Below, in pieces: positions 1 to 55,792 of a stretch of DNA of 64,000 nucleotides. How positions within the stretch are numbered: position 1 is the first letter of the stretch; every line of letters starts with the position of its first letter. Location of the stretch: the NCBI RefSeq assembly GCF_988243305.1, contig NZ_OZ547136.1; one strand, written 5' to 3'. A model generated the notes under the pieces. It saw only the letters and a program-made list of their open reading frames with translations, had not been told where the DNA came from and did no database searches. Both the position numbers and the translations under genes were made by a program.

Positions 1-293
1 ATGATCTGCACAGCATTCAGCTTCCAGAATCCGTACACTTTTCCACTCACACAGCTTTCTCAAAATACAGCCTATTGCTCTACGCTTCTCTCTGTAGAAC
101 ACCTGTCTTCGGTATTTTGGCGCAAATACTATGTGATATTTACAGTTCCATCGGGTGTGCGCTAAGCTCTTTTCGTTCCCCATTGGGACCCCCTTTTGAT
201 TTCTTGTTTGACACTTGCAGTTGCCAGACCGCAAGGTGTTTTAACAAATCAAAAGGGGTTTTAATAACTGGCTCAAAGCTGAAAGCTTTCCGG

Positions 294-320
294 AACCCCC
301 AGCCTAGCTGGGGGTTTTCT
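294..320 (+). terminator. Intrinsic terminator-like hairpin (cccccagc / gctggggg) followed by TTTTCT; would end a plus-strand transcript coming from upstream of the window
   Basis: 8-bp GC-rich inverted repeat with 3-nt loop followed by T-run, read directly. Confidence 0.5.
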
Positions 321-2034: not shown

Positions 2035-2051
2035 GCGACTCCACACAGCGG

Positions 2052-2127
2052 GGGTGATTAGCTCAGCTGGGAGAGCACCTCCCTTACAAGGAGGGGGTCG
2101 GCGGTTCGATCCCGTCATCACCCACCA
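2052..2127 (+). tRNA. valU: tRNA-Val (anticodon UAC)
   Basis: 76 nt, GGGTGATTAGCTCAGCTGGGAGAGC...CACCCACCA with encoded CCA; anticodon loop cccTTACAagg; first of three identical copies. Confidence 0.97.
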
Positions 2128-2171
2128 ACTACTTTATGTAGTCTCCGCCGTGTAGCAAGAAATTGAGAAGT

Positions 2172-2247
2172 GGGTGATTAGCTCAGCTGGGAGAGCACCT
2201 CCCTTACAAGGAGGGGGTCGGCGGTTCGATCCCGTCATCACCCACCA
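2172..2247 (+). tRNA. valX: tRNA-Val (anticodon UAC)
   Basis: Identical to the copy at 2052-2127. Confidence 0.97.
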
Positions 2248-2293
2248 CTTTCTCGCCAGCTAAATTTCTTGTAAAAATGTGAAGTACCGAAGT

Positions 2294-2369
2294 GGGTGAT
2301 TAGCTCAGCTGGGAGAGCACCTCCCTTACAAGGAGGGGGTCGGCGGTTCGATCCCGTCATCACCCACCA
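2294..2369 (+). tRNA. valY: tRNA-Val (anticodon UAC)
   Basis: Identical to the copy at 2052-2127. Confidence 0.97.
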
Positions 2370-2373
2370 CTTC

Positions 2374-2449
2374 GGGTCGTTAGCTCAGTTGGTAGAGCAG
2401 TTGACTTTTAATCAATTGGTCGCAGGTTCGAATCCTGCACGACCCACCA
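2374..2449 (+). tRNA. lysV: tRNA-Lys (anticodon UUU)
   Basis: 76 nt, GGGTCGTTAGCTCAGTTGGTAGAGC...anticodon loop gacTTTTAatc...CGACCCACCA; 4 bp after valY. Confidence 0.97.
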
Positions 2450-2453
2450 ATGT

Positions 2454-2481
2454 AAAAAAGCGCCCTAAAGGCGCTTTTTTG
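2454..2481 (+). terminator. Intrinsic terminator of the val-lys tRNA operon
   Basis: Hairpin agcgcc-ctaaa-ggcgct followed by TTTTTT. Confidence 0.8.
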
Positions 2482-2589
2482 CTATCTGCGATACTCAAAG
2501 ATTCGAACCTGCAGCAGGTTCGAGTTGAGCGCAGCGAAACAACGGAGCCGCTCGCGGCGACGGCCCGAAGGGCGAGCGAAGCGAGTCAT

Positions 2590-2648
2590 CCTGCACGACC
2601 CACCAATGCAAAAAAGCGCCCTAAAGGCGCTTTTTTGCTATCTGCAAT
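2590..2648 (+). repeat. Second copy of a 59-bp direct repeat (tRNA-Lys 3' end + terminator); first copy at 2434-2492
   Basis: cctgcacgacccaccaatg[t/c]aaaaaagcgccctaaaggcgcttttttgctatctgc[g/a]at occurs twice, 156 bp apart, 2 mismatches. Confidence 0.85.
2610..2637 (+). terminator. Duplicate intrinsic terminator hairpin
   Basis: Same hairpin and T-run as 2454-2481. Confidence 0.7.
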
Positions 2649-2658
2649 TTGCGAAATT

Positions 2659-39938: not shown

Positions 39939-41161
39939 GATTGTGCCTCCGCTTCGGTTTTGGCCGCGGTCGCGTCTTCTTTTGGCACCAGCATCATCGC
40001 CACGCCAATCGCCGTTACGCCGCCGATCAACTTGCCGACAATCATCGGGAAAATCATGGCGTTCATGTTGGCAGCGGCGAAGCCTAAGTGGTCACCCAGG
40101 GCGAAAGCAGCGGAAACGGCGAAGGCGCAGTTGATGACTTTGCCGCGGGTATCCATCTGCTTCATCATGCCAAACATTGGGATGTTGTTGGCAAGCGTTG
40201 CCACCATGCCAGCTGCCGCGATATTGTTCATATTCAGCACTTTACCGACGCTCATCAGCGGTTTTTCAAACCAGCGGGTCAGCAGCAATACCATCGGGTA
40301 CGCCCCTAACAGAACACAGGAGATAGAACCGATAACTTCAATGGCGCGCATCACTTCACCGGGTTTATCGCCAGGGGCCATAAAGATAGGATCCAGACCG
40401 GGGATCAGTTCCCAGCCAAGGAGGAATTTCACTACCGCGGCAGCAAGACCGAGGGTGATCAATGCAACGAGGAATTTGGCGAAGATCTGGAAGCCGTTGA
40501 TCATTTTTTCCGGGATGAATTTCAGCCCCAGCGCCACCAGCACCGCAACGATAAGTACCGGGATCATGTTCATCAGGATCAGCGCAAAGGTGAATTCCAC
40601 CGGCTGACCGTTGATCTGCACACCGGAGTACATAGCAACCAGACCACCAGCAATACAGCCAATCGGAATGGTCACAATGCCCGCCAGCACGCCGAGCGCC
40701 AGATAACGACGGTCAGAAGGTTCGATAATGCCGAGCGCCACCGGAATGGAAAACACAATCGTTGGCCCCATCATCGACCCGAGAATTAACCCAGAGTATA
40801 GCCACGCTGCTACGTCGCCGCCCGCCAGCTCTTTGGCGAGGAAGAAGCCGCCCATATCGCACGCCAGCAGTGTTCCGGCGAACATCGATGGGTTAGCGCC
40901 GAGCATTTCGTAAACCGGGATAATCACCGGTCCGAGTACGTGGGCCAGAACAGGTGCCAGCGCGGTCATACCAACCATCGCCAGGCCCAGTGCGCCCATT
41001 GCCATAAAGCCTTCTTCGAACTGCCCGCCGGATCCTTCGATACTTTTACCGAACTTACCGAGGAAACGAGCAGAACCGCCGAACTGCGACAGGATCCTGT
41101 CTACGGCAGCTATCAGCATAAAGAACATCATGATGTACATGATGATTTCGTTAATTCCCAT
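39935..41161 (-). CDS. eutH: Ethanolamine permease
   Basis: 408-aa polytopic membrane ORF. Confidence 0.95.
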   Translation of the reverse strand: MGINEIIMYIMMFFMLIAAVDRILSQFGGSARFLGKFGKSIEGSGGQFEEGFMAMGALGLAMVGMTALAPVLAHVLGPVIIPVYEMLGANPSMFAGTLLACDMGGFFLAKELAGGDVAAWLYSGLILGSMMGPTIVFSIPVALGIIEPSDRRYLALGVLAGIVTIPIGCIAGGLVAMYSGVQINGQPVEFTFALILMNMIPVLIVAVLVALGLKFIPEKMINGFQIFAKFLVALITLGLAAAVVKFLLGWELIPGLDPIFMAPGDKPGEVMRAIEVIGSISCVLLGAYPMVLLLTRWFEKPLMSVGKVLNMNNIAAAGMVATLANNIPMFGMMKQMDTRGKVINCAFAVSAAFALGDHLGFAAANMNAMIFPMIVGKLIGGVTAIGVAMMLVPKEDATAAKTEAEAQS

Positions 41162-41277
41162 CGCCTTTACTCCCTGTTAGTTGTTATTTATTGCCAATGC
41201 TGAAAGTGGGTTTTTCCCTCACTCTGGAAGCCGAGGGGCCGGGGTGAGGGTAATTGTTTGCACCGGCGCGACTCTGT

Positions 41278-41328
41278 TCCCCTCACCCTAACCCTCTCCC
41301 CAAAGGGGCGAGGGGACTGTCCGTACAC
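41278..41328. repeat. GC-rich dispersed intergenic repeat, copy 1 (between eutG and eutH)
   Basis: tcccctcaccctaaccctctccccaaaggggcgaggggactgtccgtac; near-identical copy at 54671-54720; partial inverted copies (gggtgaggg / ccctcactc) at about 41215-41255. Confidence 0.8.
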
Positions 41329-41330
41329 TT

Positions 41331-42518
41331 TTATTGCGCCGCTGCGTACAGGCCGACAATCTGCTCCAGGCTGGCGGTACGCGGGTTGCTGCGCAGACAA
41401 ATATCTTCCAGCGCGGCCTGCGCCCATGCACCGTAATGCGCAGATGTCGCACCAATATCGCCCAGTCGTTTACCAATCCCGACTTCCGCAATCAGCTCAC
41501 TTACCGCGTTAATAGCGTCACGATCGTCGGATTTTTTAGTTCGCAGCGCCCGACCAATCTGACTAAAGCGTTCACGACAAACCATCCGGTTAAATTCCAT
41601 CACCGTTGGCAGCAACATGGCGTTCGCCAGACCGTGCGGAATATGCAGCGCCGCCCCTGGCTGATGCGCCATCGCGTGGCACAACCCAAGCCCCGCACTG
41701 GAAAACGCCATTCCCGCCATACATGAAGCCAGCAACATGCTCTCGCGGGCGGCAAGGTCGTGACCGTAGCCCACCGCTTTCGGCAGTGATTTACCAATCA
41801 TCGCGATTGCGCCAATCGCCAGGCTGTCGGTAAACGGTGTAGCGTTCAGCGCGCTGTACGCTTCAATAGCATGGGTTAACGCATCAATGCCGGTCATCGC
41901 CGTGACATGCGACGGCACGCCTTCGGTCAGCGCAGCGTCGAGAATCGCCACATCCGGCATCAGCGAGGCGTGGGCTAACACCTGCTTGCGCCCGCTCACA
42001 GCGTCGATAATCACCGTTACGTTGGTGGTTTCAGAGCCGGTTCCGGCGGTCGTTGGAATGGCAACCAACGGCAGGCGCGGTTGCAGAATGCTGGTTTCTG
42101 ACATTTCTGCCAGCGTGCTATCGGGATTCGTCACCAGCAACGCCACGGCTTTTGCTGCATCCAGCACCGAGCCGCCGCCAAACGCAATCACCCCGTCACA
42201 GCCTGATTCACGCAACTGCGCCACGGCTGCACACACGTCGGTGATGCACGGTTCGCCCACCGGACATGGCCAGAGCGTCATGGCGATACCTTTAACGGCC
42301 AGGCTACGCGTCAGCCCGGCGGTCATCCCCGCCTGATGCAAAAAGCTGTCTGCCATCACGAACAGATGTTTCAGCCCACGCGTTTGCGCTTGCTGCCCGC
42401 AACTGCTCACCGCGCCCGGACCGCAAAGCGTCACCGGTGGAACGCTAAATGTTTTTACCCGTTGCAGATTCAGGGTATCGAACGCCTGAAAGAGCGCGGC
42501 CTGCAATTCATTTTGCAT
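41331..42518 (-). CDS. eutG: Iron-containing alcohol dehydrogenase
   Basis: 395 aa, Fe-ADH family. Confidence 0.95.
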   Translation of the reverse strand: MQNELQAALFQAFDTLNLQRVKTFSVPPVTLCGPGAVSSCGQQAQTRGLKHLFVMADSFLHQAGMTAGLTRSLAVKGIAMTLWPCPVGEPCITDVCAAVAQLRESGCDGVIAFGGGSVLDAAKAVALLVTNPDSTLAEMSETSILQPRLPLVAIPTTAGTGSETTNVTVIIDAVSGRKQVLAHASLMPDVAILDAALTEGVPSHVTAMTGIDALTHAIEAYSALNATPFTDSLAIGAIAMIGKSLPKAVGYGHDLAARESMLLASCMAGMAFSSAGLGLCHAMAHQPGAALHIPHGLANAMLLPTVMEFNRMVCRERFSQIGRALRTKKSDDRDAINAVSELIAEVGIGKRLGDIGATSAHYGAWAQAALEDICLRSNPRTASLEQIVGLYAAAQ

Positions 42519-52642: not shown

Positions 52643-54646
52643 ATGTCCCGAAAAGACCTTGCCAATGCGATTCGCGCACTCAGTATGGATGCGGTACAAA
52701 AAGCCAATTCTGGTCATCCCGGCGCGCCGATGGGCATGGCTGATATTGCCGAAGTGCTGTGGAACGATTTTCTTAAACATAACCCCACCGACCCAACCTG
52801 GTATGATCGCGACCGCTTTATTCTTTCCAACGGCCACGCGTCGATGCTGCTCTACAGTTTGCTACATCTGACCGGTTACGACCTGCCGCTGGAAGAACTG
52901 AAGAACTTCCGTCAGTTGCATTCAAAAACCCCAGGTCACCCGGAGATTGGCTATACGCCAGGTGTTGAAACCACCACCGGTCCACTTGGACAAGGTTTGG
53001 CGAACGCCGTCGGACTGGCGATAGCAGAGCGTACACTGGCGGCGCAGTTTAACCAGCCGGATCATGAAATTGTCGATCACTTCACCTATGTGTTTATGGG
53101 CGACGGTTGCCTGATGGAAGGTATTTCCCACGAAGTCTGTTCGCTGGCGGGCACGCTGGGACTGGGCAAGCTGATTGGTTTTTACGATCACAACGGTATT
53201 TCCATCGACGGTGAAACCGAAGGCTGGTTTACCGACGATACAGCAAAACGTTTTGAAGCCTATCACTGGCATGTGATCCATGAAATCGACGGTCACGATC
53301 CGCAGGCGGTGAAGAAAGCGATCCTTGAAGCGCAAAGCGTGAAAGATAAGCCGTCGCTGATTATCTGCCGCACAGTAATTGGCTTTGGTTCGCCGAATAA
53401 AGCAGGTAAGGAAGAGGCGCACGGCGCACCGCTGGGGGAAGAAGAAGTGGCGCTGGCACGGCAAAAACTGGGCTGGCACCATCCGCCATTTGAGATCCCT
53501 AAAGAGATTTATCACGCCTGGGATGCCCGCGAAAAAGGCGAAAAAGCGCAGCAGAGCTGGAATGAGAAGTTTGCCGCCTATAAAAAGGCCCATCCGCAAC
53601 TGGCAGAAGAGTTTACCCGTCGGATGAGCGGCGGTTTGCCGAAGGACTGGGAGAAAACGACTCAGAAATATATCAATGAATTACAGGCAAATCCGGCGAA
53701 AATCGCTACCCGTAAGGCTTCGCAAAATACGCTTAACGCTTACGGGCCGATGCTGCCTGAGTTGCTCGGCGGTTCGGCGGATCTGGCTCCCAGCAACCTG
53801 ACCATCTGGAAAGGTTCTGTTTCGCTGAAGGAAGATCCGGCGGGCAACTACATTCACTACGGGGTGCGTGAATTTGGCATGACCGCTATCGCCAACGGCA
53901 TCGCGCACCACGGCGGCTTTGTGCCGTATACCGCGACGTTCCTGATGTTTGTTGAATACGCCCGTAACGCCGCGCGGATGGCGGCACTGATGAAAGCGCG
54001 GCAGATTATGGTTTATACCCACGACTCAATTGGCCTGGGCGAAGATGGTCCTACGCACCAGGCTGTTGAGCAACTGGCCAGTCTGCGCTTAACGCCAAAT
54101 TTCAGCACCTGGCGACCGTGCGATCAGGTGGAAGCAGCGGTGGGCTGGAAGCTGGCCGTTGAGCGCCACAACGGACCGACGGCACTGATCCTCTCCAGGC
54201 AGAATCTGGCCCAGGTGGAACGTACGCCGGATCAGGTTAAAGAGATTGCTCGTGGCGGTTATGTACTGAAAGACAGCGGCGGTAAGCCAGATATTATTTT
54301 GATTGCCACCGGTTCAGAGATGGAAATCACCCTGCAAGCGGCAGAGAAATTAGCGGGAGAAGGTCGCAATGTACGCGTAGTTTCCCTGCCCTCGACCGAT
54401 ATTTTCGACGCCCAGGATGAGGAATATCGCGAGTCGGTGTTGCCTTCTAACGTTGCGGCTCGCGTGGCGGTGGAAGCAGGCATCGCCGATTACTGGTACA
54501 AATATGTTGGTCTGAAAGGGGCAATTGTCGGGATGACCGGCTATGGGGAATCTGCTCCGGCAGATAAGCTGTTCCCGTTCTTTGGCTTTACCGCCGAGAA
54601 TATTGTGGCAAAAGCGCATAAGGTGCTGGGAGTGAAAGGTGCCTGA
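52643..54646 (+). CDS. tktB: Transketolase 2
   Basis: 667 aa from [40 protein letters not shown]; TPP motif GDGCLMEG. Confidence 0.97.
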
Positions 54647-54670
54647 TGGTGATCGCCGGATGCTGTATGT

Positions 54671-54720
54671 TCCCCTCACCCTAACCCTCTCCCCAGAGGG
54701 GCGAGGGGACGGTCCGTGCG
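54671..54720. repeat. GC-rich dispersed intergenic repeat, copy 2 (between convergent tktB and ypfG)
   Basis: tcccctcaccctaaccctctccccagaggggcgaggggacggtccgtgc, about 94 percent identical to 41278-41328. Confidence 0.8.
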
Positions 54721-54748
54721 CTTTTTAGGGGCGCATCTGGGATTTTGT

Positions 54749-55792
54749 TTAACGGGTGATCCACAACGTGGGCCAGGCGTCTGGCCCATGCCAGTTATCA
54801 CAGGTGGGTTCTGCGGCGTAACGCACCAGGCGAAAACGCTGACCGTCAAAGCGCCAGCGCGCCTGAATGCCACAATCGCTTAATCCGCGCCCTTTTGCTA
54901 AGGTCACCAGTTCACGCGATTTTTCATCGAATGTTGCGTTCATCAGTTCCAGTTCATTCGTCTCCTGACCGCTGTTGAACGGCAAACGTAACCGAACCGG
55001 GCGCGAGGCCAGTGGCTTTTTACGCGACACAATCCAGGCCAAATCAATGGTGTTATAGGCCCCTGCCTCACAGCTAATCATCATCAGCGCTTTATCATCG
55101 GTCAGCGCAGTGACATTTACCTCTCGACGCAATGGATCAAGCGAGCAGCGCAGACCATTCATCCGCCAGTTTCCATAATCCAGCAAATCGTTGCGTTCTT
55201 CGAGTGAGAGTGGCGTCGGCGTTGGGTTAACCACCGCGACCTCTTTCAGCGCAGGCGCGGGCGGTACGCTGAGCGGCGGTTCGTCCCCTTTCTTGATCCA
55301 CGCGGTTTCACTGCCAACGCGCTTTTGCTGAGCATCAATAAACAACAACGCCGCTTTTAAGCCACTCAGAGAAATGGTCTGATTGCCGTCGCGTAAGGTG
55401 ATCGCCTTCCCTTCCTGAATCATCTGCAAAAACGCGGTGATGGTTGCCGTATCATCGGTTACTAATAACCATGGTGAAATCCGCCACTTGTCACCACTTA
55501 ACGCCAACGGCTCGCCATCTAACAGCAGCCGTGGCGCTATCTCCCCTTCAGACGCATCCGGCGACTTCAACCCGCCGCGCTCAATACGTAAAACGGCATC
55601 CGTATGCGCCCCGGCGCTGCGGCTCAGGGTCATCACCAGTCCGTTATGATCGCCCGTATTACGCGCCACGCAGAAGTTTTGGTTATTACAGGTGACCTGC
55701 CAGTCGGAAAACGCCCGTTGCGCTGGTGCCGCCCACACCAAAGACGTCGGCAACAAAGCGAAAAAAAAGAGAAGGAAAATGCGATAGCGCAT
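54749..55792 (-). CDS. ypfG: Secreted protein of unknown function
   Basis: 347 aa with signal peptide MRYRIFLLFFFALLPTSLVWA. Confidence 0.88.
   Translation of the reverse strand: MRYRIFLLFFFALLPTSLVWAAPAQRAFSDWQVTCNNQNFCVARNTGDHNGLVMTLSRSAGAHTDAVLRIERGGLKSPDASEGEIAPRLLLDGEPLALSGDKWRISPWLLVTDDTATITAFLQMIQEGKAITLRDGNQTISLSGLKAALLFIDAQQKRVGSETAWIKKGDEPPLSVPPAPALKEVAVVNPTPTPLSLEERNDLLDYGNWRMNGLRCSLDPLRREVNVTALTDDKALMMISCEAGAYNTIDLAWIVSRKKPLASRPVRLRLPFNSGQETNELELMNATFDEKSRELVTLAKGRGLSDCGIQARWRFDGQRFRLVRYAAEPTCDNWHGPDAWPTLWITR

Follow-up and report, generated by a model that had tools for sequence, protein, structure and literature searches.

BoxC is a family of short, GC-rich repeats that has been known in Escherichia coli since 1992, when it was first described upstream of fabI (Bergler 1992; Bachellier). 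The same element has been studied under the names PIT (Hoyne and Maher 2000, 2002), TMECO (Holder 2015, PMC4666352) and HPG1/HPG2 (Kaplan 2016, PMC5100583); a stem-loop census lists it as BoxC, and in Enterobacter sp. 638 it is the 100-copy palindrome. In published in vitro work, the G-rich strand was found to fold as an intrastrand triplex or as a G-quadruplex. The rule by which an A and a B copy are paired in inverted orientation and the wide conservation of the blocks were both remarked by Holder (PMC4666352) and Kaplan (PMC5100583), and TMECO loci were found to be more variable between strains than control spacers (Holder 2015, PMC4666352).

REP/BIME sequences resemble BoxC in several respects: both occupy the same type of slot (3′ UTRs, between convergent genes or within operons), contain a GC-rich hairpin, vary among strains, are transcribed and are able to mark RNA 3′ ends. 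In contrast, REP is a single imperfect palindrome, whereas BoxC consists of three blocks, and the sequences are unrelated. A further likeness is the tie to a dedicated nuclease-type gene, the RAYT/TnpA-REP Y1 transposase for REP and, as it now appears, DUF559 for BoxC; the folds of the two enzymes differ (HUH Y1 for REP, PD-(D/E)XK for BoxC). Miniature elements such as MITEs and Rickettsia palindromic elements (RPE) are likewise short, structured, non-coding and multi-copy, and far outnumber the coding element. Paired BoxC copies resemble the two ends of a MITE without its middle, and in Gracilibacteria the BoxC block lies in frame in conserved proteins, as RPE do. Unlike for these elements, no target-site duplication was seen for the BoxC described here, its solo form corresponds to a single end, and no classical transposase is associated with it.

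The window, that is, the whole stretch of 64,000 nucleotides analysed here, is E. coli DNA and is 100% identical to strain MEW across 1.4 kb. As the first-pass annotation had stated, tktB (transketolase 2; plus strand, 52643–54646, stop codon 54644–54646) and ypfG (DUF1176 protein; minus strand, 54749–55792) converge. The spacer between them is 102 nt. A repeat search of the window revealed that 54668–54725 in this spacer and 41275–41332 form a 58-nt direct repeat with 93% identity (54/58) and no gaps; a MAFFT alignment placed the two copies in the identical register. For the 22-mer core CCCTCACCCTAACCCTCTCCCC, the window contains exactly two sites (41280 and 54673), as against a chance expectation of 0.00 in 100 dinucleotide-preserving shuffles. 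The repeat that the first-pass annotation reported is thus real, but its figure of about 47 of 50 matching positions in 54671–54720 should read 46, with mismatches at 54696, 54711, 54718 and 54720, and its partner range ends at 41327 (41278–41327), not at 41328. Elsewhere in the window, 193–316 (minus strand) matches the sRNA STnc490 with 146 bits, and 2047–2650 (plus strand) holds a cluster of four tRNA genes among which lie an RtT repeat and duplicated terminator hairpins; both are ordinary known features.

Judged by its sequence, the 54 kb repeat is a solo BoxC (PIT, TMECO type A-mm, HPG1). The minus strand of 54672–54707 reads CCCTCGCCCCTCTGGGGAGAGGGTTAGGGTGAGGGG, which is letter for letter that of TMECO “type A mm” nos. 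9, 16, 19 and 22, the four K-12 entries of this 36-nt type in Table 1 of Holder 2015 (PMC4666352). One of these identical entries is the copy upstream of fabI, the founding BoxC site. We assigned BoxC membership by the presence of three blocks of about 9–11 nt with loops of 3–5 nt, a total length of 34–37 nt and a match to the E. coli consensus. The 36-nt core has one C-rich and two G-rich blocks, arranged on the minus strand as CCCTCGCCCC-TCT-GGGGAGAGGG-TTA-GGGTGAGGGG and on the plus strand as CCCCTCACCC (54672–54681), CCCTCTCCCC (54685–54694) and GGGGCGAGGGG (54698–54708), and it includes the HPG1 sequence GGGAGAGGGTTAGGGTGAGGG. The blocks are in register with six K-12 copies, and the C block is able to pair with either G block, so that the G-rich strand can also fold as a hairpin. 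The part that is invariant across the alignment with the six K-12 copies is about 41 nt (TTCCCCTCACCCTAACCCTCTCCCCnnAGGGGCGAGGGGACnG). The full shared stretch of 54668–54725 comprises TGTT, the core and the tail ACGGTCCGTGCGCTTTT; the two copies in the window match over a greater length because they have a subfamily tail in common, which is also present in the adk-hemH copy. The similarity is therefore no artefact of low-complexity C/G runs, the reservation attached to it at first, since the 36-mer equals published K-12 elements and aligns in register with the six copies.

As an element, the 54 kb copy does not differ from BoxC/PIT/TMECO/HPG1: the 36-nt A-mm core is identical, and like the family it is intergenic, lies at gene 3′ ends, has about 16–30 copies and is polymorphic among strains. 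The difference concerns the locus, where K-12 has no BoxC. The copy at tktB-ypfG thus belongs to an already known family, is in a typical position and represents ordinary biology. It begins 26 nt after the tktB stop codon in the C-rich RNA orientation, and about 38 nt past the ypfG stop codon in the G-rich RNA orientation. For the core of the G-rich strand, the folding energy was −26.2 kcal/mol (z −2.5) for RNA and −12.4 (z −2.6) for DNA. Core RNA folds, with only Watson-Crick pairing considered, reached −21 to −26 kcal/mol with z down to −2.5; RNA folds of the whole spacer were no better than shuffles (z −0.96 and −1.19). Under a rule of four runs of at least three G with loops of 1–7 nt, the minus strand contains a G-quadruplex motif, GGGG-AGA-GGG-TTA-GGG-TGA-GGGG, the same as that of HPG1. 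The REP consensus palindrome GCCGGATG...CATCCGGC is absent from BoxC, and just an 11-nt REP half-site adjoins it at 54655–54665. Rfam searches, permissive on the spacer and at the gathering threshold on the whole window, gave no family for BoxC and only sub-threshold chance matches.

The sister copy (41275–41332; type A, core 41279–41314), identical to three other K-12 TMECO entries, is located in the eutH-eutG spacer (41161–41345) inside the eut operon, where its tail runs into the eutG stop codon. Together with a degenerate type-B-like block set, CCCTCACTCTGGAAGCCGAGGGGCCGGGGTGAGGG (41217–41250, plus strand), it makes up an inverted A+B pair of the kind usual in this family. Of the terminal repeats and border duplications that mark MITEs, the 54 kb copy, being solo, lacks the first, and no duplication was seen at its borders; the 41 kb copy has an inverted partner. 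The inverted BoxC pair occupies the eutH-eutG spacer in 305 of 5426 genomes; other strains have BIME arrays of 1–5 units of 100 bp (1, 2 or 5 units were seen), with spacers of 99–516 nt. Going by its length, the window presumably fits the K-12 map only without CPZ-55 in the eut region (about 34–49 kb); in K-12, this 6.8-kb prophage splits eutA and eutB.

These are the two copies of BoxC in the window, both within intergenic spacers. The first-pass annotation called the element dispersed, and the family bears this out: blastn with the 76-nt element found it in 5423 of 5426 complete E. coli genomes, with a median of 16 places per genome and a maximum of 29. At tktB-ypfG itself, the BoxC allele was present in 832 of the 5426 genomes, counted by at least 80% cover of a 211-nt query (54590–54800) whose middle third is the element, while the others, 85%, have REP instead and match the query as two flanking pieces only. 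The K-12 spacer contains one REP and a half. An alignment of six alleles (one BoxC form, several REP forms) showed that all share the REP half-site GCCGGATGCTG (54655–54665, plus strand; also in the K-12 sequence) at the left and ATTTTGTTTAAC at the right, whereas the segment at 54666–54742 is allele-specific, with BoxC here and REP of 47–66 nt in K-12 and most strains. The half-site shared by the BoxC and REP alleles shows that it is a REP remnant older than the split between them. REP or REP fragments also directly adjoin BoxC at pstA-pstB and frlR-yhfS. Because REP sequence directly abuts several BoxC copies, our results suggest that the two families use the same insertion sites or compete for them.

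In relatives, which we located by way of their YpfG homologues, this position looks different. In Citrobacter freundii, the tktB and ypfG frames overlap by 11 nt (L141, 2534–2544), their stop codons share bases (TTAA) and no spacer is present. Another enterobacterial contig has an 18-nt spacer free of repeats, a third relative has REP at the ypfG stop, and Salmonella enterica has an unrelated 422-nt spacer (L139, 2545–2966) in which a 76-aa ORF was called that belongs to no known family. Since REP is found in 85% of the E. coli genomes and the slot is empty in relatives, the BoxC at tktB-ypfG is an insertion-type allele and no required part of tktB or ypfG. Because of the allelism of REP and BoxC and the differing or empty spacers in relatives, the E. 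coli spacer is essentially inserted repeat and the slot a recurrent landing pad. Reconstruction from the outgroups gave no order for the arrival of REP and BoxC in E. coli. The comparison of alleles revealed neither a clean empty site nor a target duplication at tktB-ypfG or zntA-tusA. The change at tktB-ypfG is a replacement, and an exchange by recombination between divergent alleles would account for it just as well.

We consider it probable, on the whole, that the 54 kb repeat is a solo BoxC present as an insertion-type allele, that it is the orphan end of a DUF559 element, and that it acts locally as a stop for exonucleases. The link to DUF559 starts from the founding E. coli BoxC upstream of fabI, which adjoins ycjD, a DUF559 gene. 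The ycjD product ends ...SPSP*, encoded by CCCTCTCCC-TGAAA-GAGCGAGGGGG and a BoxC-type tail, which together form a two-block BoxC-like sequence, and a full BoxC follows. We compared the ycjD 3′ end in L143 (K-12 1350900–1352400) with L171 and L172. In K-12 it carries an insertion of about 105 nt with the two-block BoxC-like hairpin, bounded by a 21-nt direct duplication, GAGACGGTGCTGGAGAATATT, and in the L172 allele the ORF runs straight into a full BoxC and ends ...GPLAPLGRGLG. The gene was found in 3378 of the 5426 E. coli genomes and is absent from 38%, which still carry BoxC.

A scan of species-representative genomes with the block GGGAGAGGGNNNGGGTGAGGG yielded at least 120 loci. Among the matches listed were Contendobacter, Afipia, Hyphomicrobiales, Deltaproteobacteria, Gammaproteobacteria and Candidatus Gracilibacteria, and no Enterobacteria; nearly all of those listed have a complementary C block 3–6 nt upstream, and their flanks are lineage-specific. 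tblastn of YcjD against the fetched block-motif loci found only two further DUF559 genes among the matches listed (L043 and L093), each with inverted three-block sets immediately at its borders. The DUF559 genes within inverted repeats form units of about 450–500 bp (L093, 7110–7558; L043, 3155–3612; in L144–L166, about 1340–1930). DUF559 genes thus bounded by inverted three-block sets provide the coding partner with shared ends that is expected of a MITE-like family.

An independent sample of DUF559 genes, collected by protein similarity in viral contigs, comprised 27 loci; with L043 and L093 from the block-motif scan added, 24 loci were analysed. Inverted repeats of 24–134 nt hug the ORF in 21 of these 24 loci, with scores of 43–133 against at most 31 in shuffles; the viral-contig sample is redundant and reduces to some seven independent groups, and counting Afipia, Gracilibacteria and E. 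coli as well gives about ten lineages. The ends share an architecture of a hairpin, a small spacer hairpin and a third block. The block sequence varies with the protein clade (CCCTCTCCC/GGGAGAGGG/GGGTGAGGG, CCGCCCCC/GGGGGCGG/GGTGGGGGC and TCCCCCTCC/GGGGGAGGA/GGAGGGGGC), and the clade nearest to YcjD uses the BoxC blocks themselves. We also surveyed protein tails in the 150 best of 42,025 representative DUF559 clusters. In this set, 58 of 103 tailed proteins have a block-encoded peptide within 50 residues after the domain, and 29 of 74 have one before it; in the controls, the rate was 0.5% for shuffled tails, and no such peptide occurred in 723 control windows or in 150 domain interiors. DUF559 genes are statistically associated with inverted three-block ends.

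All three DUF559 query proteins score as PF04480, and the nearest solved structure is a Neisseria endonuclease-like protein. A survey of PD-(D/E)XK proteins groups DUF559 with Vsr and with a Vsr-like homing endonuclease. DUF559 shares this Vsr-like PD-(D/E)XK fold with the Vsr repair nuclease and with I-Bth0305I, and the fold includes proven selfish homing enzymes. Known Vsr-like homing enzymes reside in introns or inteins, whereas the DUF559 genes of this study stand on their own between long, structured inverted repeats. Our literature search, which covered few subscription journals, found no work linking DUF559, YcjD or COG2852 to BoxC-type repeats.

The Candidatus Gracilibacteria metagenome-assembled genome JALNXF01 (24–32% GC, code 25) provides a further view of the blocks. 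Long ORFs of this genome contain the 33-nt block, in more than one frame and in both orientations (L081–L097; for example L092:2577, L094:2638 and L093:1631). The genes with an in-frame block encode IleRS, LepA, a MiaB-like enzyme and an RlmD-like methyltransferase, and the block-encoded peptides include PHPNPLPEGEGE and LTPTLSQRERE. In LepA, the insertion amounts to about 40 aa between domains I and II, as confirmed against the solved structure 2ywe. One ORF also has an in-frame DUF559 segment bracketed by block-encoded peptides. By analogy with Rickettsia palindromic elements, such in-frame insertion is how mobile DNA behaves.

Taken in this direction, BoxC would be the orphan terminal repeat of a compact selfish element encoding a DUF559 (Vsr-like PD-(D/E)XK) nuclease. 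ycjD would represent the single, decayed E. coli copy of this element, solo and paired BoxC its non-autonomous remnants or target sites, and the nuclease would act on BoxC. tblastn with YcjD and with the L093 segment found no match in the window; the 54 kb copy is an orphan, and ycjD lies elsewhere in E. coli. A broader form of this proposal, to which we give an even chance, is that a very large, unrecognised class of compact selfish elements of about 450–500 bp has the BoxC/PIT/TMECO sequences as its terminal inverted repeats or as its dedicated target sites, with DUF559 as the sole gene and ycjD as a decayed member; the tktB-ypfG copy would then be an orphan end that displaced REP. Alternatively, DUF559 genes could home into pre-existing BoxC pairs, rather than BoxC deriving from them. 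Against an origin of BoxC from DUF559 elements, ycjD is single-copy and decayed, lacks the left-hand blocks and is missing from 38% of E. coli genomes, and no target duplication was seen at tktB-ypfG; in metagenome-assembled genomes, the genes flanked by block pairs are ordinary ones and do not encode nucleases. We also considered an IS200/IS605-like transposase between block pairs of the same orientation in metagenome-assembled genomes as a candidate enzyme; the genes there encode NarK-type transporters, a NUDIX hydrolase and RmuC, and the candidate was rejected.

A different explanation places the cause in the DNA itself: the G-rich (minus) single strand would fold as an intrastrand triplex or G-quadruplex and stall replication or provoke recombination, so that the spacer becomes a rearrangement hot spot (Holder 2015), which we think unlikely. 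Oligonucleotides of type A-mm do form a triplex in vitro with a Tm of 74 °C, and the four G tracts with 3-nt loops obey the G-quadruplex rule. The greater strain variability of TMECO loci relative to control spacers and the high polymorphism of both BoxC slots in the window point in the same direction; however, any mobile insertion would be equally variable, the alternative REP/BIME alleles are variable too, and the zntA-tusA copy is stable, being present in 84% of E. coli genomes. At tktB-ypfG, the G-rich strand would be the lagging-strand template, as we assume from the K-12 map position. In vivo DMS footprinting showed no sign of a triplex, and DNA polymerase was blocked only in vitro, without an effect in vivo.

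The proposal that the GC-rich hairpin, triplex or G-quadruplex halts RNA polymerase arriving from tktB and ypfG, and so insulates the convergent genes, fares worse, and we regard it as improbable. The first-pass annotation had suggested such a bidirectional transcription barrier, and the idea was also floated by Kaplan 2016 (PMC5100583) and in the Enterobacter sp. 638 genome paper. BoxC shares with intrinsic terminators a stable GC-rich hairpin 3′ of a stop codon, and 7 of 23 K-12 copies lie between convergent pairs as against 1–2 between divergent pairs. In contrast to intrinsic terminators, it has no U tract: the hairpin leads into GACGGUCCG (plus strand) or UUAGGGUGAGGGG (minus strand), with GACGGTCCG (plus) and TTAGGGTGAGG (minus) as the post-stem sequences. 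A scan of 54300–55100 on both strands found no intrinsic-terminator-like and no promoter-like site. In the reporter assays of Hoyne and Maher's functional study, in the form in which Holder 2015 (PMC4666352) reports it, the elements likewise acted neither as promoters nor as terminators and left RNA polymerase unaffected. The presence of REP in place of BoxC in most E. coli genomes and the lack of a spacer in Citrobacter also argue against a barrier at this site.

The K-12 Term-seq data in the supplements of Adams et al. 2021 (PMC7815308) bear on both this proposal and our own. Only four K-12 BoxC copies showed RNA 3′ ends, all 3–11 nt past the hairpin: lldD (3781065, plus strand; called primary; 3–4 nt), cstA (632098, plus strand; +10 nt), the fepB leader (624567, minus strand; +11 nt) and ppiC (3959467, minus strand; +4 nt, G-rich orientation). 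Such ends just past the hairpin would be expected of a barrier, and REPs in the same type of slot are now argued in a 2026 preprint to act by partial termination and as decay blocks. However, the K-12 data showed no 3′ end of ilvC at its BoxC; this transcript continues past BoxC as far as the following hairpin terminator (3959531, plus strand). Moreover, at five of the six convergent loci examined (frlR/yhfS, hemB/tauD, tldD/aaeR, ppiC/ilvC and tusA/zntA), Rho-dependent termination regions lie 80–730 nt past BoxC, in the opposing gene. Since the ilvC end and the Rho-dependent ends lie beyond BoxC, RNA polymerase reads through the element in both orientations, and the claim of a bidirectional barrier is not supported. 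As a separate observation, strong Term-seq 3′ ends lie at the BoxC pair of the divergent fepB-entC region (624567 and 624680, both minus strand), and BoxC in the fepB leader could serve as a premature-end or attenuator-like site for this iron-regulated gene.

Stalled exonucleases are the best explanation for the RNA ends at the BoxC hairpin; RNase II and PNPase come to a halt some 6–12 nt 3′ of a stable stem. BoxC can thereby define or protect transcript ends in both orientations. K-12, the strain of the Term-seq data, holds REP and not BoxC at tktB-ypfG, and by analogy with the K-12 copies the BoxC here would be transcribed into the 3′ UTRs of both genes, with RNA polymerase reading through. 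The GC-rich hairpin would then stop 3′-to-5′ exonucleases in both 3′ UTRs, and stable ends are predicted near 54711–54719 for tktB and near 54681 for ypfG. The local effect of BoxC would thus be the passive role usually given to the REP that it replaced.

It is very improbable, in our judgement, that BoxC is bound by a host protein and owes its persistence to selection for a role in regulating the chromosome or genes, and not to selfish spread. In this view BoxC would work like REP, for which binding of gyrase, IHF or Pol I is reported. The extreme conservation of the blocks across phyla would fit such a site, as would the uncompensated hairpin mismatch of the dominant subtype, which implies that something besides pairing is preserved. 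However, the copies share no class of flanking gene and no fixed distance to ORFs, the element is present or absent among strains, and the site is empty in relatives. In-frame insertions in housekeeping genes make no sense for a regulatory site, and the conserved partner found is a nuclease gene, not a host factor. Finally, a chance likeness of two low-complexity C/G-rich stretches, which base composition alone would suggest, is dismissed by the 54/58 ungapped match, the zero chance expectation and the identity with published family members.

The copy at tktB-ypfG is in itself minor, as it adds one more strain-variable BoxC to about 60 catalogued loci. The family as a whole is of wider interest. 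BoxC has been without an explanation for more than 30 years despite the biophysics of its triplex and quadruplex, and DUF559 offers a concrete candidate enzyme. If the link to DUF559 is true, it explains the occurrence of an identical 33–36-nt GC-rich sequence from Enterobacteria to Gracilibacteria, the inverted pairs and the unstable loci, and it would give a role to a very large family of domains of unknown function.

Our study also provides insights into the 3′ UTRs of E. coli. BoxC and REP/BIME are alternative occupants of the same 3′-UTR position at two slots 13 kb apart, a swap that is not described in the literature we examined. This alternative occupancy, together with the lack of a spacer in relatives, indicates that these positions behave as landing pads for selfish repeats and not as designed terminators. 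Strain differences in the 3′ UTRs of core metabolic genes may therefore reflect which repeat landed.
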